Shown here one piece after another: positions 5,137 through 55,892 of a stretch of 64,000 nt of DNA (positions are counted from its first letter, which is position 1; every line of letters starts with the position of its first letter). The position numbers and the translations under genes were made by a program. Below the pieces are notes generated by a model, which saw only the letters and a list, made by a program, of their open reading frames with translations, was not told where the DNA came from and did not search any database. Source of the stretch: Rhizaria sp. SCN 62-66 (lineage: Eukaryota); assembly GCA_001724265.1 (NCBI GenBank), contig MEDY01000181.1:1-64000 (forward strand), read 5' to 3'.

Positions 5137-5173
<37 letters not shown>

Positions 5174-8100: not shown

Positions 8101-8196
8101 CTCGGGCTCGGCGTCGGCTTTGCATCGGCGGACGCGGCGGCCAATGTGGCTAATTACGCGGCAGCTGATGCGTTTGAGAGCAAGTCGCAGCGCTGA
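2602..8196 (+). CDS. BTB/POZ + BACK domain protein, about 1864 aa when three internal TAG codons are read as sense
   Basis: BTB-like motifs (FSDVIVVAG...PAHMSVLTSMSGLFRRAL; LPQLPPAVLPLLLACFYC) and BACK-like motifs (LPPRLLRALLEDDHLAAPELACLKALLRWA...LLPLVRFAAL). ORFs 2512-5112, 5263-5931, 5965-6198 and 6205-8196 share one frame and are separated only by TAG at 5110, 5929 and 6196. Ends in TGA followed by an AT-rich 3' region. Confidence 0.75.
5041..5172 (+). repeat. Coding (CAG)n poly-glutamine tract containing one TAG codon
   Basis: Reads CAG CAG CAT TAG CAG CAG CAG CAG CAA GCG CAG CAT CAC CAG CAG... at 5101-5172. Confidence 0.9.
6616..6654 (+). repeat. Coding (AAC/AAT)n poly-asparagine tract
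   Basis: Run of AAT/AAC codons inside the BTB/BACK gene. Confidence 0.85.
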
Positions 8197-8491
8197 TGGG
8201 GATGTTTTTTTTTGTTTTTGTGACGGAGTAGTACTTAGTTTTTAGTGTTCACGATCAGCGTTATTTTTTATTTTGTGCATACACCAGTGATCATTTTTAA
8301 ACAAAACATTTTTTGCAATTATACCAATATCTAGCGGAGATACCTGTGACTTTCTGAGTTCTAGTCTTATTGTGGTGACAGCTTGTCTTGAGAGACGTCG
8401 GCGGCTTAAATTTGCCCAACGGACCGACCGGTGCTGAGCGAGAGAGCGAGTTGAGCAGAAGTTTGCAACCGTTTGTTGGCCTCTCCCCGAC

Positions 8492-9641
8492 ATGAAGTTC
8501 GTTGCCCTCCTTGTTGCCGTCGTTGCCGCGCTCGTTCTGAGCGTCACTGCGCTTAAGGCTGACCGCACCATGGTCCTTTCCATCCAGCGTGTACGTCCAA
8601 AGTCCCTCGTCCACGCTCTGTTTTCCTCCTTGCCCGCGCGCTCCCGCTGTCTTTGAAATGCACACCGAAACGCGTCGCCTAACATGCAGCCACACTTGTT
8701 TTGCTTTGTTCAACTGCTTTAGTGCGATGCCACCTCGCCCTTTTCCCTCCACGGCCTCTGGCCTCAGTGGGGCATGGTACGTTCCTTTCCTCTCCTCTCC
8801 TCTTCGGCCCTTTTGAGCTCCGACACGGTCGCTCCTCCGCACTTGCCAGCGCCTTCCTGTGAACGACAACTGCTCACGTACCAAGTTACGGATATCACGC
8901 CGACTTTGAGGACAGATGTGATGCGCATGTACGCGCTTCTGTGGCGCGCTTGTGCTCCCAGGCCCAGTCCCGATGGTGTCACCAAAACATCATCGTCGAG
9001 ATGCTGTCGCTGTGGGAGCAAGTCCAACGCTGCTCTGATGAACTTGTCGATACCCTGTCGATCGCTGACTACATTGACCACCTTGCGTACGCTCGCGATT
9101 ACGTTGCTGGACACGTTTCTGCGCCTGTATATGTACCCTCCGCGCGTGCGCGTGTCGCCGGTGGTGTCGTCATTGCTCCCGCGAGCCAGTAAAGTGCTTT
9201 TGTGAACCTGGACGGCGTATTAGACTCGACCAATGATTTAGTTTCTTTTTTCAGTACTCGCACTCATCCTATTATCCTTCCCTTTCTTGTCGTCCCCCCA
9301 TTTGCTTGTCTTTCTGTGCTACGACACAGGACTGCCCCGGCGAGAGGTTCGACATCAAGAAGCTTGCCTCGATCCGCGGCACGCTCGACGTTGATTGGCT
9401 CTCGTGCCCGCAGCACGGCTCCACGAACGAGAAGTTCTGGGAGCACGAGTGGTCCAAGCACGGCACCTGCACTGGCTTGTCGCAGCTCGACTACTTCAAC
9501 GTCACGCTCGGCCTGCTGCATAAGCACAGCCACCTGTGCTCGTCCACCGTCCAGGTCCCGCTCCCGCCCTTCGGCTTCGTCGACGTCCCCAACAAGGAGT
9601 GCCGTCTCTGCATCAACGACAAGTACGAGCTCTGCAACTAA
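8492..9641 (+). CDS. Secreted ribonuclease T2 family protein, 3 exons (8492-8590, 8723-8776, 9330-9641)
   Basis: Signal peptide MKFVALLVAVVAALVLSVTA; active-site motifs FSLHGLWP (CAS I) and FWEHEWSKHGTC (CAS II); two phase-0 GTACGT...AG introns; stop TAA. Confidence 0.9.
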
Positions 9642-10357: not shown

Positions 10358-12451
10358 ATGGAGCTTGTGCTCAACGCCTTCCGCTTTAAGTCGACAGGTC
10401 CGTTCTTCCCCCAAACTCCGCTCTCTGGTATTGCTTTGCCTTGTCAGCACTTTTTCACGTTGTATCATTTATTGCTATACACACCAACTTGCTGAAATTG
10501 CTCGCACGCACAGACTACCAGCGTACAATCGACTTCTATCAGGGTGTCCTGAAGATGCCGATTGTACGCCAGCTCGACTCCTCCGCCAAGGTCCGCCTCA
10601 CCTTCCAGTTTCCCCATGACACCGTCGGGCTGCGCTTCTAGTTTGAACGCACTGCCGCAGCTGCCGCAGCTACGAGCGCAGGCTCGGACGCGGGGTTTGA
10701 GACGCTGCCGTCGCTGCCGACCGCGCCGCGCGACTCAGTGTCGCTTCTGCTCTATGTGGCCGCGATGGACCCCGTCGTGGCCCGCGCGCGCGCGATGGGC
10801 TTCGTCGTCTACGTCCCACCAGCGAAGCTCAACCATCTTGTTACATCGTACGTTTTTGCACGCGCTCACGTTGCCTCGCTCTATATACTTCGATGACTTC
10901 TTGCCACACTGATTGAACCGCTCTACCTTGTCAGTCACACTGTTTTAGCTCCCGTTCATCTTACGCGCGCATTACCCCCTCTCTCTTGAACTTGTTTCCC
11001 GATATCTTTAGCGCTGTGGTGCTCGACCCGAACGGACTGCGCGTGCGCCTCATGCAGGTCGATAACCAGCCCATTCTCCCGCCCATCACAACCGCGAGCG
11101 CGACCGCAGGCGGCGCTGATGCCGACTCCCCCAACCCCGGTCACGGGCACAGCCATAGCCGCAGCAGCGGCAGCGCGGTCGCTGGCGATGGCGGCGACGG
11201 CGATGGCGGCTCGCGCGCGCGGGGCCCCACGGCGCGGCTGGGCTACGTGTCGGTGCCCGTGGCGAGCGCGCGGCGCTTCGGCCAGGTCGCGGCCTTCTAC
11301 GACGCACTCGCCCTGCCCGCGCACGCGCGCCCCTCGGCCTCGGCCGCGGCGGCGGCGGCCGGGGGCGCGGGCGCGGCGCTGCCCTTCTCCGCGCTGCCGC
11401 TCACGACGGCCGGCGGCGCGGGCTCCGCTGCGGGCGCGACCTCCAGCATGAGTGCCGGTTCGAGTGCCGGCAGCAGCAGCAGCAGCGTTGGCCGCGCGTC
11501 GCGGCACCTGCGCGAAGTCGATGCGGAGCACGTTGCGGACGCGCTGACCGCCTTCTTGTGGCTTGGCAACGGGCCCCGCGCGCGCCGCCCCGCGCTCTGC
11601 CTCGTCCACAAGGCCACACGATCGGGCACCGGCGCCGCCACCACAGCGCTCTCGTCCGCGGCGGCGGCGTCGACGCCCGCAGCAGCAGCTTTGGGCGACG
11701 GCGAGTCCGGCGCGGGCGCGGGCGCGGGCGGCGAAGACAGCGAGTCTAGCGCGGTGACGGTGGCCGCCGTGTCGCACCCAGTTTTCCTGGGCGTGTCGTG
11801 CCTCGTGCACTCTATCACGGCCGCCGCCGCGCAGCTGCGTACAGTCGAGGGGCTTGCCGGTGCGCGGCTCGAGCCCGCCGCCGCCGCGCACGGGCTGCCG
11901 CGCTGTGTCTCCTTTATTGACCCCGTACGTGACGCCGCTTGCGCTGCTTGTCTTGCTACACTACGATCATTGCCTGACTTGTTTGTTGGTGTTGATTGTG
12001 ATATGTTATCCCGTTTATTGAATGTGTGTTTTATGTAATGCAACTGGCTGTGATATTATTTGTGTATTTCCTGTGTTGTTTTTAAATATCATGTTTGCCT
12101 TTTTATGTCATACTTGTTTTCTTACCCTTATTGTACTTCCTTTAATTACCCACTAAGGCTTCCGTTGCGGTCGAAGTCACCGATGGCGTGCCGTACACGC
12201 CAGCTGCATCAGCGTCCTCTGCCACCGCGGTTGCAGTCGGCGCCGGCTCTTCCTCCGACACAGCGGCTCTGCTTGCCTCTGTTTACGGCCAGAGCATTCA
12301 CGGTCAGAGTCACGGCCACGGTCACGGGACTCCGCGGGGCAGCGCGCCGTCACAGGCGCAGCCACAGCAGCAGCCACAGCAGGCACAGTCGCTTTCATCG
12401 CTGGTGCGATTCGGTCCGACGCCGGAGCCATGGCAGGGCCGCCACGGGTGA
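10358..12451 (+). CDS. Glyoxalase/bleomycin-resistance (VOC) superfamily protein with two VOC-like domains; exons 10358-10397, 10514-10847, 11012-11924, 12158-12451; one internal TAG
   Basis: Spliced translation gives TDYQRTIDFYQGVLKMP...VGLRF*FER...SLLLYVAAMDPVVARARAMGF...AVVLDPNGLRVRL, then a second unit RLGYVSVPV...VAAFY...SFIDP|ASVAVEV. TAG at 10639-10641; stop TGA. Confidence 0.75.
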
Positions 12452-14718: not shown

Positions 14719-15418
14719 TTAGCCGCGCCACCACTTGCCCATGCGCGTGAGGAGCTTGTCCGAGAGCTTCTGCTCGGCGATGACCTCCTTCTGGTTCGCG
14801 TTAACGCGGCGCATCGTCTCCTCCTGCTGGTTGAGACGTTCGAGCGTGTCGCGCGCGACGTCCTCCGACTGGAGCAGCTGTGCACGCGCGGCGTGCAGGC
14901 GCTCCATGTTGGCTGCGTGGCGCTCGTCCTCGTCCACAGGCCCGTCGGCGGGGCCGCCCGCGGCGCCGGCGCGGGGCGCGCGCGCGAGCAGCTGGCGCCG
15001 CTTGAGGTCCTCGACCTTGGCCGTGTACGTCTTGGTCTGCGCCAGCGCGGCGGCCTTGGCCGTGGGGTTGGCGAGCGCGTGGACGTGGATCTTGAGCTGG
15101 TCCAGAAGCTGCTCGGCCTCCTCGATCGTGTCCGTGATGTCGTCGGGCAGCGGGCCCGAGGTGGGGATCGGAGCCAGGAGCTCCTCCAGGTCGGACAGGT
15201 AGCTGTGCGCGGCAGAGGAGCGCGCGGCAGAGGGAAAGTTGGAAAGCAGAAGCGGGGTCAAGAGGTGGAGAGAGAGAGAGAGAGAGAGAGAGAATAAGTG
15301 AGTTGTCAGGCGCAATAAAGACTCAAAGCTCGTGAATACGCATAGAATATACGTTCGTCAGACATTGGATTGGAGCATGAAAGAGAGCAGAGGGGACGTA
15401 CTTGTTGACAGTGGACAT
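14719..15418 (-). CDS. Vti1-like Qb-SNARE (N-terminal helical bundle + SNARE coil) lacking a C-terminal transmembrane helix; exons 15418-15402 and 15202-14719
   Basis: MSTVNNYLSDLEELL...IEEAEQLLDQLKIHVHAL...QSEDVARDTLERLNQQEETMRRV...LSDKLLTRMGKWWRG; intron GTACGT...CACAG; stop TAA. Confidence 0.7.
15268..15293 (+). repeat. (GA)13 microsatellite in the SNARE gene intron
   Basis: Direct reading of the sequence. Confidence 0.9.
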
Positions 15419-16218: not shown

Positions 16219-19200
16219 ATGCTCCGTGCCGGCGCGCTGACCGCAGCCGCGCGCATTAGGACCCTTGCCGCCCCTCTGTTTCTGCCACGCCTTGCAACCG
16301 TGCTCTCATGCCCGCCCCGGCGCACGCTTTCCGTCTCTGCCGCCACGCACGGTGTCTCAACCGCGACTGCGGCTGCGGACTCGGGCGCGGTGGCCGCGGC
16401 CCGCGCGCGGCTGCCGCTGCTTTTCAACTCGTGGGACGACCCTTTTGTGGTGGTGTACAAGCCCGCTGGGCTGGCCATGCAGCTGCGCGGCGACCTGCCC
16501 GCCGGCCAGCCCTCGGCCGCAGTCAACGCCGACGCTAACGCTTGTGACGCCAACGCTAACGCTTGTGACGCCGATGCTCACGCTTGCGACGCCGACGTCG
16601 ACGCTGACGACGCTGACGCTGAGGTGGGCGTGGAAGCCGCGGGCCGCGGCGTCCAACCGTCAGTGATGTCTCTCGCGCGGTTACTCGCGGGATCCGCGCG
16701 GCCTGTGTACCTTGTGCACCGGCTGGACAAACACACCGCGGGGGCGCTCGTGCTCGCGCTGCACCGCGCGGCGGCCTCGGAGCTGCAGGGCTCGGTGCAG
16801 CGGTCCGCCACGCTGAATACAGCACAGGATGAGTTAAATATAGCACAGGATGAGCTCTGCGCCGCAGAGGAAGCCGCTGCAGAGCAAGCTGTTAGTGCAC
16901 AAGAGGATGCCATTTCAGATGCAAAGACAGACGCTGCAGCGGCGGAAATGGGGCCGTCAGCGGTGCTGCGGGCGCAAAAGAGCGCGGCGCGGCGCGCGCT
17001 GCGCTCTGTGCTCGACCGCGGCGCGCCCTGGGTCAAACGGTACGCGGCTCGCTTCGAACAGTACAAAGCGATATATATTATACCGGTGAGCCCAATATAA
17101 TGTATTTTAGCTGTTGTGCTTTCCGGAGGTCTTCTAACATTGTAACTTTTGTTTTAACTCGATTGCGCTCAATTTCTATAGGTACCGCATCGTGGTCGAC
17201 TTGCCGCCCTGTGTGCAAGCAGGGTTACAGCCACAGAACCACCACAGCAGTCGCAACCGCTGGCCACACCCGTTGTCTGCGCTTGTTTCGCCCCACCTGG
17301 GCGGTACCGGCCTCTTCGCCGTCCAGTCACTGCGCGACAGCGATAGGGCCGCCGTCGCCCCCGGTCAGAGCCAGAGCGGCGCCGCTGTGGAGCGCGTGCT
17401 GCTGCGGTAGGGCGCGCTGGCGACGTGGACGCTGCGGCGGCCGCTGTTTCCGCCCGCGCTGCTCGCGCACATCCCCGTCGTGCCCACTGGAGCCAGCGCT
17501 AGCGCGGGAACGGGATCAGAGACCGGCGCTGCGGACCCGCCTGCAGACACGGTGCTGACGGCGGCGCAGGGCTGGCGTGTCACACTGCCAACCAGCGGTG
17601 CTATCAACCCAGTGACATCGACAGCGCCAGTGACAACAGTTGCGGCGCCTGCCTCGATGGCCGAGTCTTCTGCCGCCGCGCTGTTCTCCGGCGACACCGT
17701 GCCTCCAGGTGCGTGGGCAGAAAAATCGCTCGCGCTAGGACCCGCCGTGCGCGCGCGCGCTCAAGCCGCGGCGCGTCGCCGGCTGCCCTGGGCATGGGCT
17801 AACGCCCGCCTTGGCTCCGATGACGTCAACGCTGTAGATACTGCGCAGACAGTTGATACACCAGAGCAAAATGGGAGCAGCTCACTCGTGCTCGATGTGC
17901 CGGGCGCTGCAACGCTCTGTGCGCCTGTGCCGGTCGCCGCGCAACCGGGCGCTTCGTTGGCCGTTGCGAACGACTTTGCCGTGCTTGCCGGTGCGCTGCC
18001 GCTGTCCGCTGCAGTGACCCCGGTTGACAGCGTCGCACTGGCAGAACGTGTTTCAAGCGCGCTGCGGGCGCGCTAGCGGCTTGCAGTGGGCGACGAAGCG
18101 TCTGCGGTCACGCCCCCACCACAGCAAGGACCAGGCGTCGCAGGTGCGCAAGAGAGCGGAACCGGCGTGGTTGCGCTGCGCTCGCCATGGGGCGCACACC
18201 GGCTGTTGCTGCAGCCCGACGCTGAGGCTGAGGCCGCGGACGGCCGCCGGTGGCGCGCGGGCCGCTTTCTGCGCTATGCCGCGCTGCCCTGCGGCTGCGC
18301 GCTGCCCCACCGCGCCGCCGCTGCGGGCGTACATGCGCGCGACTTCCGCCCCGACGACTCGCCGCGCTCTCTATCTTTCCACAAGGAGAGCAAGATCCTC
18401 GACACGCTTGGTGTCGAGGACGCGAGTGCGAGCGCGAGCGCGAGTGCGCAGTACAGCGCCGAGGCGCTGGCGCCGCGGTTTGCGCTGCACCCGTTCGTGC
18501 CGGAGCACATCCTGTTCGAGTCCGCGCCGGCGGGCAGCGCGACGCACGAGCTCAAGCCGCTGGCACCGGACCGCGCTGGCGGCGCGGCGGGGCGGCCGCC
18601 GGCGGTGTTCACGGCCGTGCGCGCCCGCGCCCGGCGCGCGCTGACGACGTTCCGCCTCGAAGGGCTCGCTCGCGGCGGTACGGCGGCGGTGTACACGGCG
18701 CAACTGGGCACGGGCCGTACCCACCAGCTGCGCGTGCACTTCGCAGACGCGGGGCTGCCAATCCGCGGCGACCCATACTACAACCGCCCGCTCGTCGCCG
18801 CATGGGCTGAAGCGGTGCTATCCGCCGCCGCCGCCGCTGATGATGATGATAAGGGGGCTGAGGGCGCCGACAAAGCTGTGTCGCCGTCACCGCAACCGCA
18901 GTTGCTGCTGGAATCGGAACTGCATTTGCAGGCGTACTTCTTGCAGTTTCCGCTCCCGCGCCGTGCGCTCGCCGACGCCTTGGAAAACGAGGCCGACAGC
19001 GCCGACGCCAACGCCAACGCTCACGGTGACGGTTCGATGCAACGCGGAGACCTTGGCCGCAGCGCGGTACCGAACGGCAGCGACCCGCTGGTGCGACTCA
19101 TTCCCGTTGCCAACACCGACAGCAGCAGGCACAGTGCCACAATTGCGGCCCGGTGGACAGAGGCGCCTCTACCGGGCCCGCCCGCGCTCGCGCCGGGCCG

Positions 19201-19939
19201 TCTGGGCGCGGGCTCACGCGGGCGGCGTGTGGCTGAGCACGGCGCGCTGCTGGCCACCCTTGCGCGCGTCGCAAATGCAGCCGCCTTTACCGCCCCTGAT
19301 CACCACGCAGCCTCTCCGCAGCAGACCGCGGCCGTCACAGGGCTGCCGGTGTGGCTGCGCGCGCGTGAGCCCTGGACTGCGGTGGCGCACGAGACTGTCG
19401 GGTCCGACGCCGCTGCGCTGTTGGCGCGCGTGTTGCGCGAAAAACCGCTGGTCGCGCCGGTGCGCACGGTCGGCGACGCCTCCGCGCTGCTGGCGCGGTG
19501 CATCGCCGCGGACAAGCCGGCGATCAAGGCGCTGACGGGCGCGTTCTTCCGCGCGCTGCACCGCCACTCTGCCGCCGCCGCAACCGCCGCCACCGGTGCG
19601 GCAGGCGCAGGCGCGGGCGCGGGCGCGGGCGCAGAGGCGCCGCGTGCGCGCGTGCGGTTGTGGTGGAACGAGCCCGACTCCGGCGGCGACGACCTGGGAC
19701 GCTACGAGACTGACTCTGCGGACGCGAGTGCGAACGCTTCCGGCGAGCCTCCGGAGCAGCACCCGCTGGGATTCACGAAGGTGCGGCGCGTGGATGGCGC
19801 CGGTGCGGCCGCTGTGGGCGCGAAGGTGTGGCGCTTTGAGAGCGACGCGGGCGTGGAGCTCGTGCGCATTGTGCTGCCGCCGCCAGAGCGCTGGGGCGTC
19901 GCCGTCGAGCAAGCCTCGCAAGCGGCGCAAGTGGTGTGA
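16219..19939 (+). CDS. RluA-family RNA pseudouridine synthase, probably organelle-targeted; exons 16219-17039 and 17182-19939; two internal TAG codons
   Basis: Motif I VVYKPAGL, catalytic motif II YLVHRLDKHTAGALVLA, KRYRIVV across the splice junction, motif III LGTGRTHQLRVHFADAGLPIRGDPYY, and LHLQAYFLQFP. Exon 2 is one frame broken only by TAG at 17408 and 18074. The N-terminus is Arg/Ala/Leu-rich like a transit peptide. Stop TGA. Confidence 0.85.
16531..16614 (+). repeat. Coding 21-bp tandem repeat, about 4 degenerate copies (DANACDA/NANACDA/DAHACDA/DVDADDA)
   Basis: gacgctaacgcttgtgacgcc aacgctaacgcttgtgacgcc gatgctcacgcttgcgacgcc gacgtcgacgctgacgacgct. Confidence 0.8.
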
Positions 19940-26085: not shown

Positions 26086-26125
<40 letters not shown>

Positions 26126-29100: not shown

Positions 29101-29209
29101 GACGCAGAGGCAGGCGGCCGAGATGCTGCGCGCCGCGTTCGGGGACTGCGGGGAGCTGCACGAGCTGGCGGCCAAGACCGCCGCCAGGGCCAAGGGAGTG
29201 CGCAAGTGA
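24697..29209 (+). CDS. Cyclin-dependent kinase of the CDK9/12/13 (CDKC-like) group with N-terminal RS/RD-rich domain; exons 24697-28500 and 28661-29209
   Basis: IGQGAYGRVFK, VAVKLV, LIREARLL, YDLAGLL, HRDVKAANVLV, ADLGLSR, LTNRVVTLWYRAPELLLGAARY, DVWAAACVLMELL; after the intron, LALLEACLTLRPKARPSAAALLGHAFF; stop TGA. Confidence 0.85.
24840..25446 (+). repeat. Coding low-complexity (CGT GAC)n / RS-RD-RE dipeptide repeats
   Basis: Repeated gaccgtgaccgc and cgtgagcgtgac units encoding the RD/RE/RS domain of the kinase. Confidence 0.85.
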
Positions 29210-29379: not shown

Positions 29380-29680
29380 TTTTAACATCAATAACAGAGC
29401 ATGCATCATTACGCCAGTTACGTTGCGCGAGCGCAATAGTGGACTCGTGCACGACCTCCGCGGGCACGGCCGCGATGCTGCAGTGCGCCACGTTGGCCTC
29501 GATGGCGCCCGCGCGATCTCGTAAGGCCGCGTCGTGCAGCGCCGTCCAGCCCTGGTGGTTGCGCAGCAGCGGGTTGGCGGTTGGCGCCCGCGCGCAGCAG
29601 CGCCTACGCCACGACCGTGAAGCCGTCGGCGGCCACGTGCGACAGTGGCGTTTTGCACAGCGCCTTGCGCACGTTGATTT
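29380..29680 (-). pseudogene. Frameshifted ankyrin-repeat gene fragment (copy 2, paralogous to 13200-13700)
   Basis: LCKTPLSHVAADGFTVVA*ALLRAGAN followed, after the same 7-bp duplication (29573-29586), by PLLRNHQGWTALHDAA...AIEANVAHC. Clear nucleotide similarity to copy 1. Boundaries are approximate. Confidence 0.65.
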
Positions 29681-45500: not shown

Positions 45501-47176
45501 CAGCGCGCGCGCTGGATCGTGCCCCGGGGTTGGTCAATGACGACACGGGCGGCTTTAGCTCTGGCGCCGCGCGGCTGGCCTCGGCCATGCTGCGTGCGCT
45601 GCAGAATGAGGGCATGATTACGAGTACTCACGAGCTTACCTCTAAGTTTATCGGTCAGCGGGATGTTAGCGCAGGCGCGTTGCGCCACTTTGTGCGCGAG
45701 CACAAGGAGGCTGTCATCAAGAGCGCGCTCGAATACGTAATTGCATCGCTGCGGCAGCGCTGCGCTGATCGGTTTGTGGACCGCTCGACACTGCAACGCC
45801 TAGTTGCGCTGCATGAGTCCAAGGCGAGGGGCGCGCTTTGGCGGGCACAGAACGGCAGTGGCGCAGATGCTGCCGGTAAGGGCAAGAGCCCGACGGCTAA
45901 GCCCGCGTCCACCGCTGCCGTCGCTGCGATGACCGCGGATCTGGCGGACTCAGAGAAGCTCAACACACTCGCTGTTGCGCACCGGCTGCGCGCGCGCTCT
46001 CTGCTGCTGATGGGCGTGGAGCGTGGCATGTTCCCGTACTGGACCATGTCCGGCGTTGGTGGCTCCGTCTTTGCCGACCTGCCGTTGGGCTCAGTACTAC
46101 TAGAGCTGCACGGCATGCATCGTGTCACGACCACCATGCTCGTGCGCCACGCGCTCGACGACCTTTACCACACGTTCGTCGCCGGCGCGCGTCGCCACGG
46201 CAAGCAGCCCAACGGCCGCGACGCGCACGACGCGGCGAGCGCGATGGCCGCAGCGGCTGCTACGGCGGGTGGCAGCGCGCTAGACAACACGCTCTTCTCC
46301 ACGCCAGACCTCTCGCTGAGTCTCGCCGTGACCAGCGGTGGCGTGTGCTTCAACGTCGGCAAGGGCCGTGGAGACCGCCCCGGCGTGCTGCGCGTGCTTG
46401 TGCGCCTTATGCTCTGCGAGTACACGTCTCCGCCGCTGGCGTCCGTGGCGCCGCTGGCCACTAACCTCGGTGTGCTGCACATCACCGCGAAGGACATGGG
46501 CGACTGGCTCGCGCAGCGCGCGGCGATGGCGCACGCGGACGGCTCCGGCGGCGTGCCAGCGTCTGTTGCGGCATCATACCTCGCGTGGCTGCGCGGCGAC
46601 ATGCCGGCCCGCGACTCAGCCCGCGGCAAGAGCTTGGCGCACGACGTGGCGGATCCGGTCATCTCTGGCACAGGGCCCAGCGCCGCGATCGAGAAGCTCG
46701 ATGCCATCGACGCGGCCGGGCTGGCTGCGCTCGTGTCGGGCTCCACCGAGGCCGACACGCAGGTGCGCACCGGCGCCGCCTCGTTTGAAAACGACGACGA
46801 TGACAACTCGCTGGACGCCTTCTTCGGCGCAGTTGGCTCCAGCGCCCGCAAGAGCGACGGCGGCGCGGCTGGGTCGCCGTTACTGCGGCACGGCAGGGAC
46901 GGCGCGGCCGAAATGCTGCAGTCGCTGGCGCGCGACAACTTCCCCGTCGGCACTGCGGAGGATGAGGTCGACGAGGGCAGCGACTTTGACGAGGACGACG
47001 GCGAGAGCGACGGGCACGATGGGGATTACAGCAGCAGCAACGCAGCAGCGACTGTGAAGCTCGATGTGCGCGCGCTCGCGAATCGCAGCAACGTTGACGT
47101 GACTGCTGCTGCGCTGTCTTGGGGCTCAGGTGTGGGTGAGGAGGACGAACTGCTCGCGTCGCTCAAGCGCAAGTAA
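36536..47176 (+). CDS. Very large (3546 aa) intronless protein with scattered degenerate PPR-like repeats and a C-terminal Smr-like domain
   Basis: PPR-like units: PTAEHFAAVMTLCRQHGAWDAAMALFVAM, MRPDVAVITALLHALAR, LPQVATFSAAIAALNK, PSLRAVGAAVQSAALTGDMPMAFRLW. Smr-like: LLELHGM...FNVGKGRG...VLRVLVRLML...NLGVLHITAKDMGDWL. Transit-peptide-like start; stop TAA. Confidence 0.65.
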   Translation: MRSTLQRLAGVPSAILPTSALANSTSDVGPALPQTQPARSFGATSASASASAFASHNNASTVTAGPAFISRPAALAALPTTTSAAFTASSTSLAGSVLLVPQRGAAYGAGKDRRGGSGGRVSDKVPPRGHTQPLTPRARFDVNAHSKRQQQQQQGEKQPQPQSGARSVDVDAAEADAAQFDAVVANAVPLDARRTNSNIKSRKGRSDGNDSDADVDVAYMQPAAVPPLAVALATLFRALSAPSLPPVSARAKSERDIFDALEHARVARSQGLLGKARSLVMNALDAATAAQTRFIDGLGRAAANEEHARTRALQSWRESFDAALEQLARAELPGAAETASAFPRAPPMPPAAPQRAVTAAATAKLARAWGVTLPTPQLWAAADTCIADGAPQDVNAAVRYLRLQARAHALALAAASPPAPAELEEYAAAAREYNDAVARYEALRLARGAPHQGAHPPRLMPESALATSSASISSADGETPLDSPEAVAVRASADLTSAGLVYLTAAAARRGALDVAVTLLDELFPPPAVPHRSLLTYVAQHAARALDYGAAAALLRVLEARGETAPPQWPAAGMADALLQRVRADVLAAERARARSAQRAAAAVTHAQSAAARAEEEADAHAKKAAAKAAQGAGSDDKSQSSSNGSGKKSKKAAAAAAAEAAEAAEAVEGHAWGVVLAEASAPTAPAQSFRAAVESVSAHLGPAARRVDPTPFVDVVAAEAGYLFPGEPAPVGVAPEAAAAAAAAAAAQRGAWGREALALLCRVETLSQAYWPQPATEVTAPALLRPGIYAPAPLPASARATNAAGRDALSRAVIWATPMLTEALYLSTLRTLVEANAPLSYAFAVLQRLVDSAAAYAALNETDPSGADPSATSHADAADEASPSSSSRALVAVRVPVVPTAEHFAAVMTLCRQHGAWDAAMALFVAMDSGMRQLLPSTPLPPTSVEDDAAKRSANLQRQQPQMPPQQLQQAVLWGEGSGAAALSQALIERHTYIVRPATFGNALLNVNSAARALAATQCATHSADSRPQLAPASASAVAFVAQPQLYSVAKSPTVLSLAIEACHHLSLPSLSYALTVALKSAVVAEKALLARRTLEADLAAAVRAVDRRLVSSHGGHHTPTRGLGSRNNNKSRGCRTDDVDADHAEDDEDVDMTPMRVVLVTDRALLAPDGVVLRPGTSTSISRGTARLLAHLDGIYRARLLVPVCTVQALPHVVSSQPAIRNHSFAIPGSASRAVAPATAAPVMGSTTFALNSPVRFLVIEAVLSQLQANWRRLRSHARTIAQLTGRLAADVNDAVTASQAVAAGTADPATVRAAATLVLVPGPAGGPARVAVAAVNADTLLDALRIDNHIFDNRGVRPSLRSPNSPPVASAYVDAEDDSSLPSIGLNTADADNSISDDADTDAARAVNAFAEPRAAAARIAAARSIAQRRSGRGNVHTIDTEAVLIEEASADAEADRAAATAHSAAESPDASASAADPFAGTLAAEGSADAYAAADSAARSGDSPCMPSMAQWLAQAAASEASARAQQRPPTMGAEDLSAAVTAALSAGGRSSRAPQANAHHGGTRHAGSGTWVDARGRTRRAPRALWTQQSMLNTLLRDAVVSRAQRARALDEDASTVEELALDAQLATALRFAVATWGVRRGLEASVVTAFVMFRALLANFNAAFAATAGLAPQDTLAQRLPLQPRVYYAGRRGALLAHVGPQFVLSVAPVTLAAVRAAVSLSDFALVHHALTKLDSFLVSHPELSNNAIFANPRAAAVPPSELAAAAATARIDRSFITVDAGGARSVRGAQSTTLSPMPPAAARFKALWISAAPTSAVATDANVIPSANPRLPAYPSLLSAVGFAPFPSMQRVTQMPQAVPMPSAAAAAVTASTAAAAGSALMLPSRPWRDLSVPLAPWERPTSAVLEALWTLRREAYVEAIAGCAGERVNSDADAGSLAVLYFTEMRVNAMLYAQRVDHTHQVRTFNFLNKNTVDNPRLLTSGLNMYSRAAVGAGPSADAQSGLSNGSGSGNNARPALLGLMADRSRGADQALERVAEGRAREERRLGMVPVAGAGIASGDKWRADIERRVRDVLGQTPAVAADAGATNAAAGSDAGAGAGRSALTTTDSGGASKASKLNRANPFDTPSHIDLSHVDGMRPDVAVITALLHALARSAPVGVLAAVPLGDATAQADVAAAAAMRRASMASLAARVWRDTLELALTPAHTASVLTGAALTSDPRAPAGFPGLGLPAPRPTAKQLAAAMAVVTASLTPSQSALAAFIDRCVASGLVTDGGLLCEQPSAAAAAPRLVGEQEMLRAAEAVDAAAAAAKKPMVSANDAADSNATVNSMPLVFANTLTIPQLSRAPEDAALDPYSCLVRSPLFTAVPREHATNTSDESAGTLALPFTFHLQDELFTAGALQQLEFATILTSQYAGAVTPVPDAATNGYSLAWLDDGSAAAGRSKSVGDALRSRAAVSAAITTAGAMMLNATRGYTPGSHSQDSTLGAISAVMDGLATRMLAGTYAAGLCTPDADGVPLLAGVQPPLPDLRAVSSWHALSPGPLAPIPPGMPHPLPAAPGLDAPVHPQARFFAAWLSAPQRPALLPQVATFSAAIAALNKASLTLNTQSDNANSKSTPIPASSQPKGGSALARQALAAFVGMQGAPFGYLPSLRAVGAAVQSAALTGDMPMAFRLWLTYIHGAFTCFLSARPRAVRSLSAATDAFLSSIAGRNSAAAAAEDAHQGGMLHVPFPSDLQVAMLFAADPSPRADSTTSTRAPPLAPELPVRASAQSASALRRDFPMTAPLPITPRLQRLTLSDLRPTLAFARAVARGRVRPGQFPTAAGRGASPTRLSVGRASVEAAVPPARVPDLSANSMMQRAVDAPMSLPTVTRNLMNVFLTHQDTASAEALALSLLRLETLFIADASRRASSLLGGLYDALFALGRCQEFATRRARIQSALGLAGTRGMHAPPQSKNSSDESISPRAAYSALLPELHRAARALDRAPGLVNDDTGGFSSGAARLASAMLRALQNEGMITSTHELTSKFIGQRDVSAGALRHFVREHKEAVIKSALEYVIASLRQRCADRFVDRSTLQRLVALHESKARGALWRAQNGSGADAAGKGKSPTAKPASTAAVAAMTADLADSEKLNTLAVAHRLRARSLLLMGVERGMFPYWTMSGVGGSVFADLPLGSVLLELHGMHRVTTTMLVRHALDDLYHTFVAGARRHGKQPNGRDAHDAASAMAAAAATAGGSALDNTLFSTPDLSLSLAVTSGGVCFNVGKGRGDRPGVLRVLVRLMLCEYTSPPLASVAPLATNLGVLHITAKDMGDWLAQRAAMAHADGSGGVPASVAASYLAWLRGDMPARDSARGKSLAHDVADPVISGTGPSAAIEKLDAIDAAGLAALVSGSTEADTQVRTGAASFENDDDDNSLDAFFGAVGSSARKSDGGAAGSPLLRHGRDGAAEMLQSLARDNFPVGTAEDEVDEGSDFDEDDGESDGHDGDYSSSNAAATVKLDVRALANRSNVDVTAAALSWGSGVGEEDELLASLKRK

Positions 47177-47651: not shown

Positions 47652-47942
47652 TTAGAAGTAGGCGATCTCCTCGTCGGCCTTGATCTCCTTCTGGTCCGCG
47701 AGCTCGACGGAGCCGTCGAGCTGGCGGTAAACACGGGCGGCGTAGAACTTGGAGCCGACCTTAATCTTGATGAAGAAGTTCATGCCAGCGACTACCTGGG
47801 ACTTGTAGTTAACGATGTTCTCGGCACTGACATCGGCGGCGTTAGCGCCGATAGCCTCCGCGAACGCGGACGAAATCTTGGCGAAGACACCCTTGACAGT
47901 GTCGTCAGCAGCGTGAGCAGCACCAGTACCACCACAGAGCAT
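47652..47942 (-). CDS. Type-1 cystatin (stefin-like cysteine protease inhibitor), 96 aa
   Basis: N-terminal MLCGG, QVVAG motif (YKSQVVAGMNFFIKIKV), C-terminal EEIAYF, no signal peptide; stop TAA. Confidence 0.92.
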   Translation of the reverse strand: MLCGGTGAAHAADDTVKGVFAKISSAFAEAIGANAADVSAENIVNYKSQVVAGMNFFIKIKVGSKFYAARVYRQLDGSVELADQKEIKADEEIAYF

Positions 47943-48811: not shown

Positions 48812-51800
48812 TTACTTGGCGCGCGTGCTGGCCCTCGTGGCACGCGTCGCGCGCGCGGGCTGCTCAACCTCGTGCGAGTCAACAGCGGCCGTCTGCTCAG
48901 TCGCCTTGGCCACGCGTGCGCGCGTCGCACGCCCCGTCGTCGCCGCACTAACGGGCTCAGACTCGGCCGCAGCGGCGTCTAGCTCACCCGACGAGCGCTT
49001 GCGGCGCGAGGTCTTGGCGGCGGGCGTCGGCGCAACGGCGGGAGTGGCGTTCTCGCTCTCGTTCTCGGTGTCGGCGTCAGCCGCGGCAGCAGCGGCGGCG
49101 GCCTTCTTGGTGCCGGCGCGAGCAGGCTTCTTGGGGACTGCAGGCAGCGCGGCGGCGGCGGCCAGCGAGGCGTGCTGACCGACAGCGCCATCGTCCTCGA
49201 TGCCAAACGCGTTGACACCGCCGCGGAGCGCGTCTTGCACGTTTTGCGGCAGCAGCGAGAGTTCGTCGCTGTTATCATGGGCCTGGAGACAGTCCGTCAG
49301 ACGGCGTGGGTTGCGCTGCTTGGCCGTGACGGCGGCCACGGCGCCCTTGGCGGCCGCGGCGTCCTCGAGCGCGCCGCGCAGACGCACCTCAGCGGACATA
49401 GCCTGCTCCTTGGCGCGCTCGAGCTCAATGCGGAGCTGAGATGCCTCAGCATCGAGAATCTCGCAGTCGCGGCGCAGTGCAGCGCCGTGGGCCTCGGAGT
49501 CCTTGAGACGCTTGAGCAGCTGCGCGCGCTCGATCTCGCCGCGGATCCCGCCCAGGGGCCCGTCGTCGTCGCCCGCAATTGCTGCCGCGGCCGCCTGCGC
49601 CTGCGCCTCCTGCAACTGAACCTCGAGCTTCGCGTTGGCCGCGCGCGCTTCGCTCACCTGCTGCTTCAGCTCGATGACCTCCTGTTCCTTGCTCCGCAGA
49701 TCCGAGTTGAACTTGTGCGCTAGGTGCTCCAACTGCGCCGCGTGCGCCGCTGTGGTGCTCACCAGTCGCTCCTCGAGATCTTGCGCGGCGCGCGCACTCG
49801 CAGCACGCGCGTCCTCAGCCTCCTCGCGCGCGGTCTCGGCGGCGGCGACGACGGCCTTGCGCTCGGCCTCAACGCCCGCGAGTCGGACTTCGACCTCCGC
49901 GCGCGCCTGCGCGATGGCGCGGTCCTGCTCGTTGCGCGCGGTCTTAAGCGCGGTCGCCAGCACGGCGTCGGCGGTGTCCTTGGCCGCGCGCACAAGCGCA
50001 GTCGTGGCGTCGTCGTGCGACGCCAGCAGCTTCTCCTGGTGTGCGACGAGGCGGCGCTGCATGCGCGCCTCGGCCTCAAGCAGCTGGGCCTCGAGACGCT
50101 TCTCATGGCGCTCCTTCTGGCGGCGCATCTCGCCGCGCATCTCCTCCCACACTTGCGCGCGCGTGGCCTCCTCGACGCGCACTTCGCGCTCGGCCGCCAA
50201 AACGCGCTCGCGGCGCAAGGTGTACACCTCGCCCAGCAGCGCCTCGCCGCGGCGCTCGGCGGCCGCCAGCAGCGCGTGCACGTTGGACAGGGCCTTGTTA
50301 AGAGCGTCGCGCTCGCCCGCCGCGACGGAGAGCTGTTCTGTCAGCGAGGCAGTCGCGGCGGCGACTTCCTCGGCGACCTCGAAGTCGCCGGCGCCGAGCC
50401 GCGACACGGCGGGCTTGCGCGCGCCAGTGCCAGGACGCTTGGTGTCGACGCGCGACGCAACGCGGATCTCGCGCGCGACGGAGGCGTACTTAAGCGTATG
50501 AAGCGTCTCGTCGTATTCGGTCGGCGACGGGTTGACGTTGCAGATCATGGCCATGGAGCCATGGCCAGTGAGCACGTCACGGAACAGAAACGTGAGCTTC
50601 GAGTCACGGAACGGCACGACGCGCTGCGGCTGCTTCGGGTTGAGCTGGTTAAAGCGCACGGCCTCCAGGCAGCGGCCGAGCTGCATGAGCGAGGCGTTGA
50701 TCTTGTTGGTCTCGTTCTGGCGCATGCCACCGGCGGCGGCGCCTGTCTTGCTCGAACGCTCAGCGCCGGCGAGGTCGCACACGGAGAGTTTGGCCCACGT
50801 CGCGCCCTTGCCGTTGGTGAGCGTGACGGTGAAGACGGAGTGCGAGCGCGAGGACTCAGCATTGAGCTGCGTGTGTGCCATGACACGGTTGGACGAGCCA
50901 CGCTCGATGACTGAGAGCGCATCCTTGAGAGTGGCGACGCGCATCTGCGACAGACCGCGGACGCGGATCTCGTCCGTTGACGTCGCCACAACGGAGATTG
51001 GCTGGCGCTGCTTCGGGTCAGCGCGGCCGTCGAGCAGCAAGTCGAAGAGCTTCTCCTGGTAGATCTCGAGGTAGCTCGCATCTACGGTCAAATCAGCTGC
51101 TGCGCTGGCCCAAGAGTCCTCGCCGGCGCTGGCGCTCGAGGCGGCAAGTGTGCGCGCGCGGTCGATGCGCGCAAAGACCTCCTTGAGCAGGTGGATCACG
51201 ATACCAGGGTTTTCGGGCGTGCCCTGCATGGTGAAGGTCTTGCCGGAGTTGGTGACACCGTAGGCGAAGATGAGGCCGTTGGTGCCGGTGAAGAGCTTGT
51301 TCACGAGCGGAAGCGTGGTCACGCGGAACACTTCCTCCTGCTGCGCGTCGGGGCCAAGGACCTTGGAGAAGGCAAATGTGCCGTGTGCCTCACCGTTCTT
51401 GTACGACTGCGACGTCTCAGGGGCTGCGAGTTCGACGGAGTTGTCGCTGACGGGCTGCACTGTGGGCATTACGTCCTTGAGCTTGCGCACGCGCTCCTCA
51501 TGCGCCGCACGCAGACGCCGGCGGTGGTCTATCTCCTTCTCGTCGAGTCCGTCAACGATCTCAATGTCGCGCGGGGCGATGATCAGCGGGCGCACGCGCA
51601 GGTAGACCTGGACAGTCTCGCCCGACACAGCTGCCGCGCCAGCGGGGCGGGCCTTGGCCGGGTTAGTCTTCTGGGGCGTCACGCAGCCGTCCTCGGCCTT
51701 GGCTTCATCAATCGTGTCGTCAAAGTCGTCATCGTCGTTCTGATCAATGACTTTGGAGTCATACGGGGAGCCGGGCGCGGAGGAGCCCGCGGAGTCAGAC

Positions 51801-52434: not shown

Positions 52435-53241
52435 TTACTTGGCAGCGTCGTCCTTGCCGAGAAGGGCGTCGATGTGCGACTTGAGCACCGACAGGTCCTC
52501 ATCATCAACAAGTTTGAACTCCTGCACGAAATAGATGAAGTGCTTGAAGCACGTGTTGAGGTGCGCCTCGGCGCCCAGCTCGACGATCGAGTTGAAGTGC
52601 GACGAGTACACGTGAGCGTAGATGCGGAACAGGCGCTTGAAGATGGTCTTGACGCGCATGAGGAAGTCCTTGGGGAAGGGCGTGCCGACCTGGAGGGGAA
52701 AGATCTGCTCGTCGTTGAGCTGGGTCTCAACCCACGTCATGAGCAGGTCCACGTACTCGGGCGCGGAAACCTTCTCCGGCTTCTTGTACTTGACGCCATC
52801 CATCCAGTAGTACTCGTAGCCCTCGGCGGACATCACGGGGCACGACTGCGCGGTGCAGAACTCGGTCACGGTGCCGTACAGGAGCGAGATCTCGTTGAAG
52901 AAGTCGACGGCTGTAAAAGTAGCGGAAACAAGTGTCAGAGTATAGCGTGAGTTGTTGCGTGCACATGAGTTGGTGAAGTTCGAGGGAATCAAGACCGTCG
53001 CCACGGTAATCAATGCATCTGGGTGGTATATGAAAGGCGTGTAGTTGTTTGAGCGAGAGACGTACTGTTGACGGCGAGCCACTCGTTGAGATCCTCGTTA
53101 GGGGGCAGGATGACGGCGGCGCGCATGTCGCCGCTGCCGAGCGTGGCGTTGGCGTACTCAGTCTTGGCATACTGAGACAGCTCGGACTTGCGCTTGTCCG
53201 TGTGCGTTTTGGGGGCCTTGAGGGTCTTGTTCCGGTTGCCA
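52435..53241 (-). CDS. MOB1: MOB kinase activator (MOB1-like); exons 53241-53066 and 52910-52435 plus an unresolved short first exon (candidate ATG near 53405)
   Basis: ATLGSGDMRAAVILPPNEDLNEWLAVN|TVDFFNEISLLYGTVTEFCT...CPVMSA...KTIFKRLFRIYAHVYSSHF...EAHLNTCFKHF; intron GTACGT...TACAG; stop TAA. Confidence 0.93.
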
Positions 53242-53838
53242 CTACGCGGGGAGAAACCAGGAGGGACAAGATCGACGGATCGAGCAAGATTGGGATACGG
53301 GAGAGTGAGATTTAAGAGCAAGACGCGTGGAAGCAAGACAATTTGACAGGTTTAAACGACGAAATCACACTGGTGCAGACGAGACACACTGGTACAGAAA
53401 ACATTGCAAGGTGGGTATAGCTGTCAAGACGCAGAAATGCAGTAGTTCAGTGGTTAATTGGTTTGAGCGTGCCACTGGTGGCAGCCTCTCTGGTGCGCGC
53501 GAGAGGTCTCCGTCAGAGACTCGACAAAAATGAATTTAGACGTACAAAAGCTTGCTGAACATGGTCAGATGGGTTCCCTTTTAGTTAGCGATGCGGTCGC
53601 CTTCTGTTGGAGCAACAAACTCCCACCACTGGACGCGTGCTCTGGCTTCTCGCTCATCGTGCGGTGGTGGTCGACCGATGTGTTCGTAAAAAATCGATGG
53701 TCCTTCCGTCCGCGGTCGACCGCGCCACCGAAAGGTCATGTGCAAAGGCTGACTTTGCGGCTTGTGCGACGCTTCAACTAGCCGTGGTTTAGATCCAAGC
53801 ACCCTTGTTGTTTTTGGACGTTGAGTGCACTTTTTAGA

Positions 53839-55892
53839 ATGTTGAATCCCGAGTCATCAGGTACGTCCATCGCCTACCATCTCGCTTTTTTAATATGACC
53901 CTTTCCCCCGTGAGCTTTGCTCTCCCTGCGCAGCCACATTTAGCTCATTGTGCCTTCGTCTTTCATCTTTCCCCGCGCTATACCCTTCCCATCCGCGCGC
54001 TTTGCGTCCGTTCTGCCCGCTCAGTTCCTGAGGCCGAGGCGAGTAAGCCTAAGCAGCAGCGCGCGAAGCCCGACGCGGCGGCGCTCGCGGCTAAGCACGG
54101 CGGTCTGCCCCGCGCCGCCGACCTCAAGATCGGCGGCCCCGGGCCTGACGGCAAGGTCCTCGAGACGCAGAGCGACCTCAAGCGTGCGCGGGCCTGGCTC
54201 GCCGAGGCCAACAAGGCCCACAAGGCCGGCCTTCCCATCCCCGTCTTCGGCAACGCCGCCGCCGCCGCTCCTGCTGCTGCTGCCACTCCCAAGGACGCTG
54301 CTCCACCGACCGGCTCGCTGCAGCCCGTGGCCCCGACCTCCGGCGGCGTGACCGTGCTTGGCCACGGCGGCGTCTCGCTCTTCGCGTCCCCAGCCTCCTC
54401 CGCGCCCTCCCTCGACGCGAGCGTCTCGGCCTCGACCGCAACCTCCACATCCTCGAAATCCTCCACCGCCACGGGTGGCAAGTCGGGCTCGGTGCTGGGC
54501 CTCGCGCAGCTGCCCGCGGCCAAGCAGGTCCCGCTCTTTGCGCACCTGCCACAGCCGGACGAGGACGAGCTGCTGGGCCTCAAGTTCGGGCTCGGCCGCG
54601 AGTCGCTGCACCCCGCCTTCCGTGCACTGGGGCTGCGCTACGCCACCGGCGAGCTCTCGGGCGCCACCGCGCGACTGGGCGGGTTCGTCCGCGCGCTCCA
54701 CGCCTTCCTCGAGGACTTCGCGCCCGAGGCCGCGGCCGGCTCGTTCTCCGGCGCCGTGCTGCGCGCGCTGCGTCCCGTGCTGCGCTTCCTCAAGGAGTGC
54801 CGTCCGCTGTTGCTGCCGCTCGACACGCTGATGCGCTCGCTGCGCGCCTTTGCCGCCAAGCCCGCCGTGGCGGCGCTGCCGGCGGCCGAGGCGCGGCGCC
54901 GGCTGTCGGACTGGGCTGTGCGCTACCTCGAGACGCACATCATGGACCTCACGCAGGACCTGGCCGTCGCCGCGGCCGGGCTCATCAAGGACGGCGACGT
55001 CGTGCTGACGTACGCGCACTCGTCCGCCGTCGAGGCCGCGCTGCTGCACCGGTTCTCCGAGGGCGCACGCTTCAGCGTCATCGTCGTCGACGCACGGCCC
55101 CGGCTCGAAGGGCTCCGCCTCACGCAGCGGCTCGCCGCCGCGGGCGTCGAGTGCGACTACGCCGACGTCACCGCGCTCGCCTACGTCATCCGCGGCGCGA
55201 CCAAGGTGCTGCTGGGCGCGCACGCGATGCTGTGCAACGGCTCGGCACTCGCGCGCACTGGCACCGCGCTCGTGGCGATGCACGCAAAGAGCAACAACGT
55301 GCCCGTCGTCTTCTGCTGCCAGTCTTTCAAGTTCACTGACGCCGTGCAGCTCGACGCCATCTGCAGCAACGACCTGGCGCAGCCCGCCGAGCTGGTCGCG
55401 CCGTCCGTGCTGGGCGCGTCGTTCGTGCCCGCTGGCGACGAGGCCGCGGCCGCGAAAAACGCGGTCGCACAGGATCCTTTCTCGCCCGCGCTCGCGCTTC
55501 TGCCGCTGAGCGCTGCGACGCCGCTCGCAGCCGAGGTTAAGCGCGCCAAGGACGCCGCCGCCGCGCGCGAGAGCGCTATTGCGAGCGCCAACGCGGCCTT
55601 CGCGGCGGCGTCCAGCAGCACGAGTGCGAGTTCGACCGGCCGCGGGGCGGGCCGCGGCGCTGGCGGCAAGGGCGGACGCGAGGCCAAGGACTCGGCGAGC
55701 ATGGTCGCGCTGCAACTGAGCGACTGGCGCGAGCTCGACGGACTGAAACTGCTCAACATGAACTACGACGTTACGCCCGCCGGGCTGATCACAGCGGTGG
55801 TGACGGAGAGCAGGATTCCTGTGCCCACGACGTCGGCGCCGGCGATTCTGCGCGAGTTTCTTACCAACGTTGACCGTGCTATGCCCGAATGA
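53839..55892 (+). CDS. EIF2B4: Translation initiation factor eIF2B subunit delta; exons 53839-53860 and 54025-55892
   Basis: VPLFAHLPQ, LHPAFRALGLRYA, FLKECRPL, IKDGDVVLTYAHSSAV, FSVIVVDARPRLEG, FKFTDAVQLDAICSNDL, LKLLNMNYDVTP; intron GTACGT...CTCAG; stop TGA. Confidence 0.9.

Follow-up and report, generated by a model that had tools for sequence, protein, structure and literature searches.

The stretch of DNA considered here comprises 64,000 nucleotides (positions 1 to 64,000, forward strand) of contig MEDY01000181.1 in the assembly GCA_001724265.1 of Rhizaria sp. SCN 62-66; this whole stretch (G000:C181:1-64000) is referred to below as the window. It harbors a row of protein-coding genes which, taken together, raise the question of whether UAG is still a stop codon in this organism. 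An earlier note, made from the sequence alone, had listed fifteen gene ends in the window, and all fifteen triplets were recovered on the expected strand: eight are TAA, seven are TGA and none is TAG (Table 1). At the same time, TAG occurs inside the reading frames of three genes of the window. Here we argue that UAG is a rare sense codon, most likely for glutamate, with UAA and UGA retained as terminators.

The gene labels of the earlier note were substantiated to different degrees. Pfam matches are strong for the RNase T2, kinase, Arf/SAR1, RING, cystatin, Mob1 and IF-2B genes and weak for BACK, v-SNARE and pseudouridine synthase, and the kinesin was recognized by a separate match; no Pfam family was found for the open reading frame (ORF) labelled PPR-Smr, for the gene at 31.3 kb, or for the one exon each of the IQ and glyoxalase genes. 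The protein of the 31.3-kb gene also yielded no usable match in the ESM Atlas. Scans of the window with Rfam and ARAGORN gave no matches.

Table 1. Gene ends, in-frame TAG triplets and the genes that carry them in the window. HMM, gene-finding hidden Markov model; GC3, GC fraction at third codon positions (values for the BTB/BACK-like gene refer to the next 60 codons); X1, X2 and X3, contigs of runs described in the text.
Feature	Position	Strand	Evidence
BTB/BACK-like gene, single frame of 1,865 codons, no intron, three in-frame TAG, TGA end at 8194-8196	2602..8196	+	HMM; weak BACK match
In-frame TAG, codon 837 of the BTB/BACK-like gene, in a poly-Gln tract; frame open for 1,027 codons more, to TGA	5110..5112	+	GC3 0.88
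In-frame TAG, codon 1110 of the BTB/BACK-like gene	5929..5931	+	GC3 0.97; X1 contig 5780-6021, 0 differences
In-frame TAG, codon 1199 of the BTB/BACK-like gene	6196..6198	+	GC3 0.93; X1 and X3 contigs, 0 differences; X2, 1 difference, place unlisted
TAA, RNase T2 end	9639..9641	+	HMM, Pfam; X3 contig 9443-9981, 0 differences, spliced joints upstream
TGA, end of glyoxalase-labelled gene (label not confirmed)	12449..12451	+	Triplet check, HMM
TAA, SNARE end	14719..14721	-	HMM, Pfam; spliced X1 and X3 contigs (joint 15202/15402) span the stop, 0 differences
In-frame TAG, RluA-like gene, exon 2, upstream of C-terminal pseudouridine-synthase motif	17408..17410	+	HMM, Pfam, GC3
Second in-frame TAG, RluA-like gene, exon 2, upstream of C-terminal pseudouridine-synthase motif	18074..18076	+	HMM, Pfam, GC3
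TGA, RluA-like gene end	19937..19939	+	Triplet check, HMM
TGA, end of IQ-labelled gene (label not confirmed)	20122..20124	-	Triplet check, HMM
TGA, CDK-like kinase end	29207..29209	+	HMM, Pfam
TAA, end of the 31.3-kb gene (31283-31765; 160 residues, strong coding bias)	31283..31285	-	HMM; no family
TAA, SAR1 end, at Arf profile end	33701..33703	+	HMM, Pfam
TGA, RING-H2 gene end	36070..36072	+	HMM, Pfam
TAA, end of single-exon ORF of 3,547 codons (36536-47176), 0 TAG inside; PPR-Smr label unconfirmed, no Pfam match	47174..47176	+	HMM
TAA, cystatin end	47652..47654	-	HMM, Pfam
TAA, kinesin end	48812..48814	-	HMM, kinesin match
TAA, MOB1 end	52435..52437	-	HMM, Pfam
TGA, eIF2B-delta end	55890..55892	+	HMM, Pfam
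In-frame TAG, kelch/EGF-like gene; frame open to window end	59449..59451	+	HMM, GC3
Second in-frame TAG, kelch/EGF-like gene	60643..60645	+	HMM, GC3

All fifteen ends were recovered by a gene-finding hidden Markov model (HMM) in which TAG was permitted as a stop; since this model was seeded on nine exons of the window, the agreement is a consistency check rather than a fully independent confirmation. Each end is preceded by coding-like sequence (GC3 of 0.72-0.97 over the last 60 codons) and followed by sequence of lower GC content (0.30-0.61). SAR1, cystatin and MOB1 had been said to stop where their families normally end, which holds for the first two: the Arf profile is matched up to position 173 of 174 at residue 88 of the 90-residue last exon of SAR1, and the cystatin profile up to 84 of 92 at residue 88 of 96. 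The stop of MOB1, in turn, lies 16 residues beyond the end of the Pfam domain. Two tiny HMM models in the window (26 and 70 codons) do end in TAG, but these appear to be spurious, one of them running antisense to a frameshifted ankyrin-like relic. By itself, the census of the window proves little, since the chance of finding no TAG among fifteen ends is 0.21, 0.087 and 0.035 if the TAG share is 10, 15 and 20%, respectively. Moreover, in the standard-code fornicate Euthynema, UAG ends 7 of 170 genes (about 4%) (PMC9161772), so that fifteen genes are unable to carry the claim alone.

The census was therefore considered over a larger part of the assembly, which consists of 34,916,453 bases in 714 contigs with a GC content of 64%. 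The sample of 779,469 bases included the window, 200 kb each of the contigs C4 and C9, 20 further stretches of at most 10 kb, and the loci of eRF1, pelota and 30 kinases; ten of the 20 short stretches had been picked for a kinase match holding TAG, which slightly inflates the count of in-frame TAG. Introns were allowed for in the self-trained HMM, which was free to read TAG as sense or to stop at it, all three stop triplets having equal priors; in-frame TAA was forbidden, so that the model has no bearing on whether TAA occurs in frame. After a size filter of at least 150 codons, 185 models were left, 150 of them with a predicted stop. These ends are 82 TAA, 67 TGA and a single TAG, the latter doubtful, with 16 open codons and then TGA behind it. 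Such a result is highly improbable under a 10% share of TAG (P = 2.4e-6 for at most one in 150), and the upper 95% bound on this share is 3.7%. Below the size filter, two models (130 and 140 codons) end in TAG, which makes three TAG ends among the models of at least 100 codons. TAG is not missing from the DNA as such, as can be judged from its presence among the stop triplets within 150 bases after the predicted ends (253 of 1,186). Where the ends could be anchored by C-terminal motifs, nine of ten are TAA and one is TGA, two of these ends having been compared with fetched homologs. Hence, a normal share of TAG terminators, which according to the earlier note would have spoken against its reading, is not seen in the larger gene set. 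The two further suggestions of the note are borne out as well: UAA is a working terminator, as indicated by its prevalence at the predicted ends, by SAR1 and cystatin and by eRF1, which also ends with TAA; and the pattern is distinct from the UAR=Gln code, with TAG nearly gone as a terminator yet present in frame while TAA terminates. Nor does the same codon serve both in frame and at gene ends, as in the context-dependent codes of Condylostoma and Blastocrithidia, one of the 150 ends being TAG, and a doubtful one.

Within the predicted genes, TAG was found 41 times in 184,470 codons, compared to 6,340 GAG, 962 GAA, 5,966 CAG and 1,059 CAA. Seven of these triplets belong to the BTB/BACK-like (three), RluA-like (two) and kelch/EGF-like (two) genes of the window; after each of the seven, GC3 remains at 0.70-0.97 and at least 620 codons follow until the next TAA or TGA. 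Outside the window, in-frame TAG is present in the single-copy gene for eRF1 and in those for CFAP21, TOR, Ubc6, SUV3 and several kinases. The in-frame TAG closest to a gene end is 41 codons away, the sites being too few for a depletion test. Nor does TAG serve as a back-up stop: in frame after true stops it accounts for 6 of 54, as against 21% in the background of untranslated regions (P = 0.04). By comparison, TAA or TGA lies inside 5 of 142 kinase matches; part of these were opened, and one (L102) ran into an intron.

The use of TAG is uneven among genes. None was found inside 22 AAA, 20 ABC, 12 TTL and 13 HECT matches, and the HECT matches in G000:C81, C42 and C111 lie in frames of 9,605-14,166 codons devoid of any stop or TAG. 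A point against the code proposed here is that conserved sites with TAG are few: seven dynein models comprising 21,776 codons contain no TAG at all. Many apparent cases had to be discarded. Most of the opened TAG flags in kinase, helicase, kinesin, DEAD, TBC, PP2C and SNF2 matches turned out to be intron acceptors and were dropped; specifically, among 11 flagged kinase sites, four are acceptors, two lie in probable introns and one in an unaligned insertion. A small, AT-richer kinase family (L098, L099 and L100), two members of which have in-frame TAG, was partly missed by the HMM and possibly represents young duplicates or decaying copies.

A rival explanation would be that the code is standard and TAG strongly avoided as a stop, with the in-frame TAGs put down to nonsense alleles, to errors of assembly, or to triplets that are edited or spliced out. 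The low share of UAG at gene ends in some standard-code protists, such as that mentioned above, and the acceptors among the flagged sites lend this view some color. However, assembly errors do not account for the in-frame TAGs: an independent metagenome contig (L182) agrees with the eRF1 gene, and with its TAG, at 1626/1626 bases, and run contigs cover two TAGs of the window, those at 5929 and 6196 (Table 1). These contigs come without strand, ends or level, X2 being a poly(A) run, and one of the matching records (the metagenome contig or the run contigs) may be the source sample; among the pieces listed, the TAGs at 5110, 17408 and 18074 are uncovered, which is no evidence either way. Near-identical contigs are present in wastewater and activated-sludge runs from two studies. 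Although spliced contigs of neighboring genes are present in X1 and X3, the BTB/BACK-like gene is intronless, so that RNA editing is only weakly excluded. Against the standard code stand also the sheer number of in-frame TAGs, their presence in the single-copy eRF1 gene and in TOR, SUV3, Ubc6 and CFAP21, and the cognate tRNA and altered release factor described below. The standard-code explanation is thus already largely refuted and retains only a very small probability; that UAG is a sense codon can be regarded as nearly certain. The same runs X1-X4 contain, as a variable high-copy repeat, the intergenic segment 12690-13080 of the window (summed depth up to ~870 in X4).

The single-copy eRF1 gene (L032, G000:C63) has an in-frame TAG in the N domain, at codon 111 of 441, and its TAA stop falls at the residue where the nearest relative (84% identical) also ends. 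With the TAG in such a position, efficient read-through is demanded. The protein carries three unusual substitutions: T32S, at a position that is Thr in 79/79 and 116/116 homologs, and G57S and T58K, where G57 and T58 are invariant in 120/120 and 116/116 homologs, respectively for the two sets compared; E55, NIKS, L69, S70 and the YxCxxxF motif are kept. The nearest relative shares T58K and keeps T32 and G57. At the third stop base, the eRF1 pocket is closed by T32; from T58 onwards, the codon is lined by the TAS-NIKS motif (PMC4605324). Iotanema eRF1 carries T32G, which its standard-code relatives lack (PMC5304391, PMC9161772), and Tetrahymena has a KATNIKD motif with which Lys58 agrees (PMC3632111). 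A point to the contrary is that, in human eRF1, T32S alone leaves termination normal at each of the three stops (PMC3632111). T32S as the sole cause was accordingly rejected, and any effect of the eRF1 changes would need the substitutions combined. With this proviso, the substitutions suggest that eRF1 in this organism may have lost or weakened its recognition of UAG.

The assembly contains one tRNA gene with a CUA anticodon, found by a pattern search as a single copy at G000:C84:76008-76080. It folds into a full cloverleaf with a fully paired acceptor stem, a consensus T loop and a short variable arm, is followed by a T run, and scores 58 bits with RF00005; the Rfam tRNA search, in which 63 of 506 candidates were scored, had missed it. 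Upon comparison with 30 other distinct tRNA sequences recovered from the genome, the CUA tRNA is closest to tRNA-Glu(CUC) (48/72 identical positions), followed by tRNA-Glu(UUC) (39/72), tRNA-Asp (38/72), tRNA-Gln(CUG) (32/72) and tRNA-Gln(UUG) (23/73). In the acceptor stem and discriminator, it matches both tRNA-Glu at 11 of 15 positions and both tRNA-Gln at 2 of 15. The conversion of CUC into CUA takes a single change, at anticodon position 36. When the pattern was widened to CUA or UUA anticodons and to arms of either length, 19 matches were obtained, none of them a second suppressor tRNA; nine were checked by ARAGORN, one is the CUA gene, and the remaining nine were judged by eye to be Thr, Lys, Leu or Pro genes. 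No UUA-anticodon tRNA was found in this search, which could miss genes with a non-consensus T loop or a long intron. Because a CUA anticodon is unable to read UAA (PMC5304391), UAA would remain a stop.

Which amino acid, then, is inserted at UAG? Glutamate is the majority residue at three conserved positions that hold TAG, admittedly a small sample. In CFAP21, the respective column contains E in 89, D in 48, Q in 2 and K in 1 of 148 homologs, and E in the nearest ortholog (71% identical); the search query carried Q at the TAG, so that E was not favored. Among the PDB alignments listed, the CFAP21 position is E in five of five. In eRF1, column 107 holds E in 114 and D in 6 of 120 homologs and, in the other set, E in 107 and D in 9 of 116, with no Q in either. 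In the hinge of a kinase, E is found in 20, D in 4 and Q in none of 27 paralogs, and Pfam favors E by 2.4 bits. At three further TAG sites, in SUV3 (human), Ubc6 (yeast) and a kinase subfamily, the nearest homologs have Asp, and the TAG sites of TOR and MetRS fall into variable columns. A TTLL-type protein (L222) carries TAG near its C-terminus at what we take to be Glu in TTLL9 orthologs; in the absence of a PDB ortholog, this site was not counted. The body of the CUA tRNA points in the same direction, and CUA tRNAs derived from tRNA-Glu read UAG as Glu in Blastocrithidia (PMC12153298) and are predicted to do so in the ciliate PL0344 (PMC10553269).

Several observations do not fit this assignment well. 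The nearest relative has Val at eRF1 column 107, which is hence not fixed in this lineage; the nearest PDB kinases have Ser (KSR) or Gln (TNNI3K) at the hinge site; Ser occupies the TOR site and, in human UBE2J2, the Ubc6 site. Summed over ten sites, the Pfam scores (E 822.6, K 818.7, Q 818.6, S 812.2, Y 803.9, L 800.8 and W 798.3 bits) separate E from Q by 4 bits only, and over the first nine sites, E (775.1), K (774.4) and Q (773.5) are not separable. The neighbors of the 41 TAGs include 9.3% Gln and 3.4% Glu, and a neighbor-likelihood test put Gln above Glu, although the test appears unreliable because it ranked His first. Five of the 41 sites, the one at 5110 in the window among them, lie in Gln-rich tracts, and one lies in an acid-rich tract. 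A ubiquitin-like copy has TAG where its paralogs have Gln (CAG). Finally, in E. coli, C36 is a strong determinant for glutamyl-tRNA synthetase (GluRS), and amber suppressors often take Gln (PMC9976931), so that the loss of C36 may impair recognition by GluRS.

Some of these observations, namely the Gln-rich context of TAG, the ubiquitin-like copy, the Gln of TNNI3K at the hinge and the behavior of C36 and amber suppressors in E. coli, can be accommodated by a code in which UAG means Gln, as in Iotanema, with the Glu-bodied CUA tRNA charged by glutaminyl-tRNA synthetase (GlnRS) or with tRNA-Gln(CUG) reading UAG by first-position wobble once eRF1 has been weakened. The acidic columns, where Gln is virtually missing, and the Glu-like acceptor stem and discriminator speak against this possibility; no CUA tRNA derived from tRNA-Gln was found, and a single paralog comparison favors Gln. 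The Gln context of TAG can be explained without a Gln meaning, inasmuch as a C-to-T change of CAG in unconstrained regions would yield TAG under either meaning. Indeed, in the Gln-rich tracts TAG (4 cases) is rarer than each of the other non-synonymous one-step neighbors of CAG that were counted (17-71), to be compared with 267 cases of the synonymous CAA, and CAG and TAG also differ between frameshifted relics. The relics in question are two related ankyrin-like sequences on the minus strand of the window (13200-13700 and 29400-29700), which share the place of their frameshift; a Gln codon of the first corresponds to TAG (29604-29606) in the second. On balance, a Gln meaning seems improbable.

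Slightly less probable still is an ambiguous UAG, that is, either a mixture of Glu and Gln or partial read-through with residual termination by eRF1, as expected of an intermediate stage of reassignment. The single tRNA gene, the rarity of UAG (below 1% of Glu codons) and its absence from the dynein models, as if it were costly, would fit such a stage, as would the retention of E55, NIKS, S70 and YxCxxxF in eRF1, the three TAG-ended models of at least 100 codons and the mixed evidence from the columns. The demand for efficient read-through in the single-copy eRF1 gene and the paucity of TAG after true stops argue the other way. As to other residues, Leu (as in the rhizarian exLh), Lys, Ser, Tyr, Trp and pyrrolysine (Pyl) taken together have an almost negligible probability. 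Leu, Trp, Tyr and Ser were excluded by a loss of 10-24 bits over the ten Pfam sites, Leu in particular standing 21.8 bits under Glu, and the short-arm, Glu-type tRNA is at odds with them too; Lys comes close to Glu in the broad Pfam profiles but occurs in only one CFAP21 homolog. The label 'Pyl', which could be cited in favor of such a residue, is given by ARAGORN to any CUA tRNA. Glutamate thus remains the assignment to which columns and tRNA point, and the nuclear code is probably one with UAG for glutamate and with UAA and UGA kept as stops.

The emergence of this code can be envisaged in three steps. TAG is all but lost from gene ends and is rare in frame, as seen directly in the DNA. The CUA tRNA derived from tRNA-Glu(CUC), the gene for which is at hand, would be expressed, charged by GluRS and paired with UAG, not with UAA. 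The sole eRF1, with its T32S, G57S and T58K substitutions, would compete poorly at UAG. New TAGs would arise from GAG and, in unconstrained regions, from CAG by the C-to-T transition, and the codon would stay rare and be avoided in conserved proteins. Rarity of UAG and its absence from the seven dynein models are as expected with a single tRNA gene.

A heterolobosean is reportedly one case of UAG=Gln. The published reassignments of UAG alone are to Leu, in the rhizarian exLh and three phyllopharyngean metagenome-assembled genomes (MAGs) from TARA (PMC11687900, PMC5304391); to Gln, with UAA and UGA as stops, in Iotanema spirale, Hartmannula sinica, Trochilia petrani and Protocruzia tuzeti (PMC5304391, PMC11687900); and to Ser in Scotinosphaera (as cited in PMC11687900). 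The Gln group resembles the present case in that UAG alone is reassigned and UAA is the main stop, and Iotanema eRF1 is also changed at T32, to Gly. In contrast, here the amino acid is most likely Glu, the decoding tRNA has been found and derives from tRNA-Glu, and T32S is accompanied by G57S and T58K. In exLh, the phyllopharyngean MAGs and Scotinosphaera, similarly, UAG is a sense codon and UAA a stop, and two of the MAGs have a CUA suppressor tRNA; here, however, Leu and Ser are rejected, and eRF1 L69 is unchanged, unlike exLh with its L69A. The code described here thus works as one of the Iotanema/exLh type, but with a different amino acid.

The known instances of UAG=Glu come along with a reassigned UAA, which means Lys in PL0344 and Glu in peritrichs and Blastocrithidia (PMC10553269, PMC12153298). 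In Oligohymenophorea sp. PL0344, as here, UAG is read as Glu by a suppressor tRNA(CUA) most similar to tRNA-Glu (PMC10553269), but UGA is the sole stop, there are 10 CUA genes and the codon is heavily used, whereas here UAA is the commonest stop, there is one CUA gene and use is rare. UAG is likewise read as Glu by tRNA-Glu(CUA) in peritrich ciliates, where UAR=Glu, and in Blastocrithidia, whose code has UAR=Glu and UGA=Trp with a dual UAA (PMC12153298); both also read UAA as Glu, Blastocrithidia with a tRNA-Glu(UUA), whereas in the present genome the search gave no UUA tRNA, and UGA still terminates. In the accessible literature, with subscription papers and bioRxiv supplements mostly outside the search, no code was found in which UAG=Glu is combined with UAA as nothing but a stop. 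It is fairly likely that such a code, with UAA and UGA as pure stops, is what this flagellate, which does not look like a ciliate, has at an early or low-use stage, with candidate eRF1 changes that would split UAG from UAA.

As for the organism itself, CFAP21 and 11 dynein heavy-chain loci in the assembly indicate a flagellate. Its introns are of the GT-AG type, with the donor consensus GTACGT, and many of its proteins are swollen by Ala-rich insertions. The small-subunit (SSU) rDNA (L001:1501-5945, G000:C706) is divergent and AT-rich, with four group I intron matches; the first insertion contains a reading frame that, by eye, resembles a His-Cys-box homing endonuclease. The ubiquitin genes (L154, L155, L163-L166) have an extra Met-Ser start; they are either monomers, which carry a tail of three residues, or fused to L40, and none of the sequences recovered spans a polyubiquitin junction. 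For HSP90, the best of the 120 matches listed is 88% identical and the next 73%. A relative in public metagenomes (P0395, P0122 and P0272), possibly more than one organism, shows identities of 84% in eRF1, 71% in CFAP21 and 88% in HSP90. One might guess at a cercozoan placement, near the sainouroids (Sainouroidea/Helkesida), for which the divergent SSU, the habitat and the Met-Ser of ubiquitin are only hints.

The codons UAA and UAG nearly always share their meaning, so that codes which split them provide a test of how eRF1 discriminates between A and G as the third base of a stop codon. In this case, the stop census, the suppressor tRNA and the changed eRF1 are all available from one genome, whereas for Iotanema and exLh the tRNA is given as predicted only (PMC5304391). 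Because the close relative has T58K yet keeps T32 and G57, the order of the eRF1 changes with respect to the change of the code is traceable. The AT-pressure account given for Blastocrithidia (PMC12153298) fits poorly here since the genome is GC-rich. There is also a practical consequence, namely, that standard-code gene calls cut such proteins: a database entry identical to the CFAP21 of this organism starts just past the TAG. Finally, the UAG within the eRF1 gene could itself act as a feedback switch on the level of the release factor, if any termination at UAG remains.

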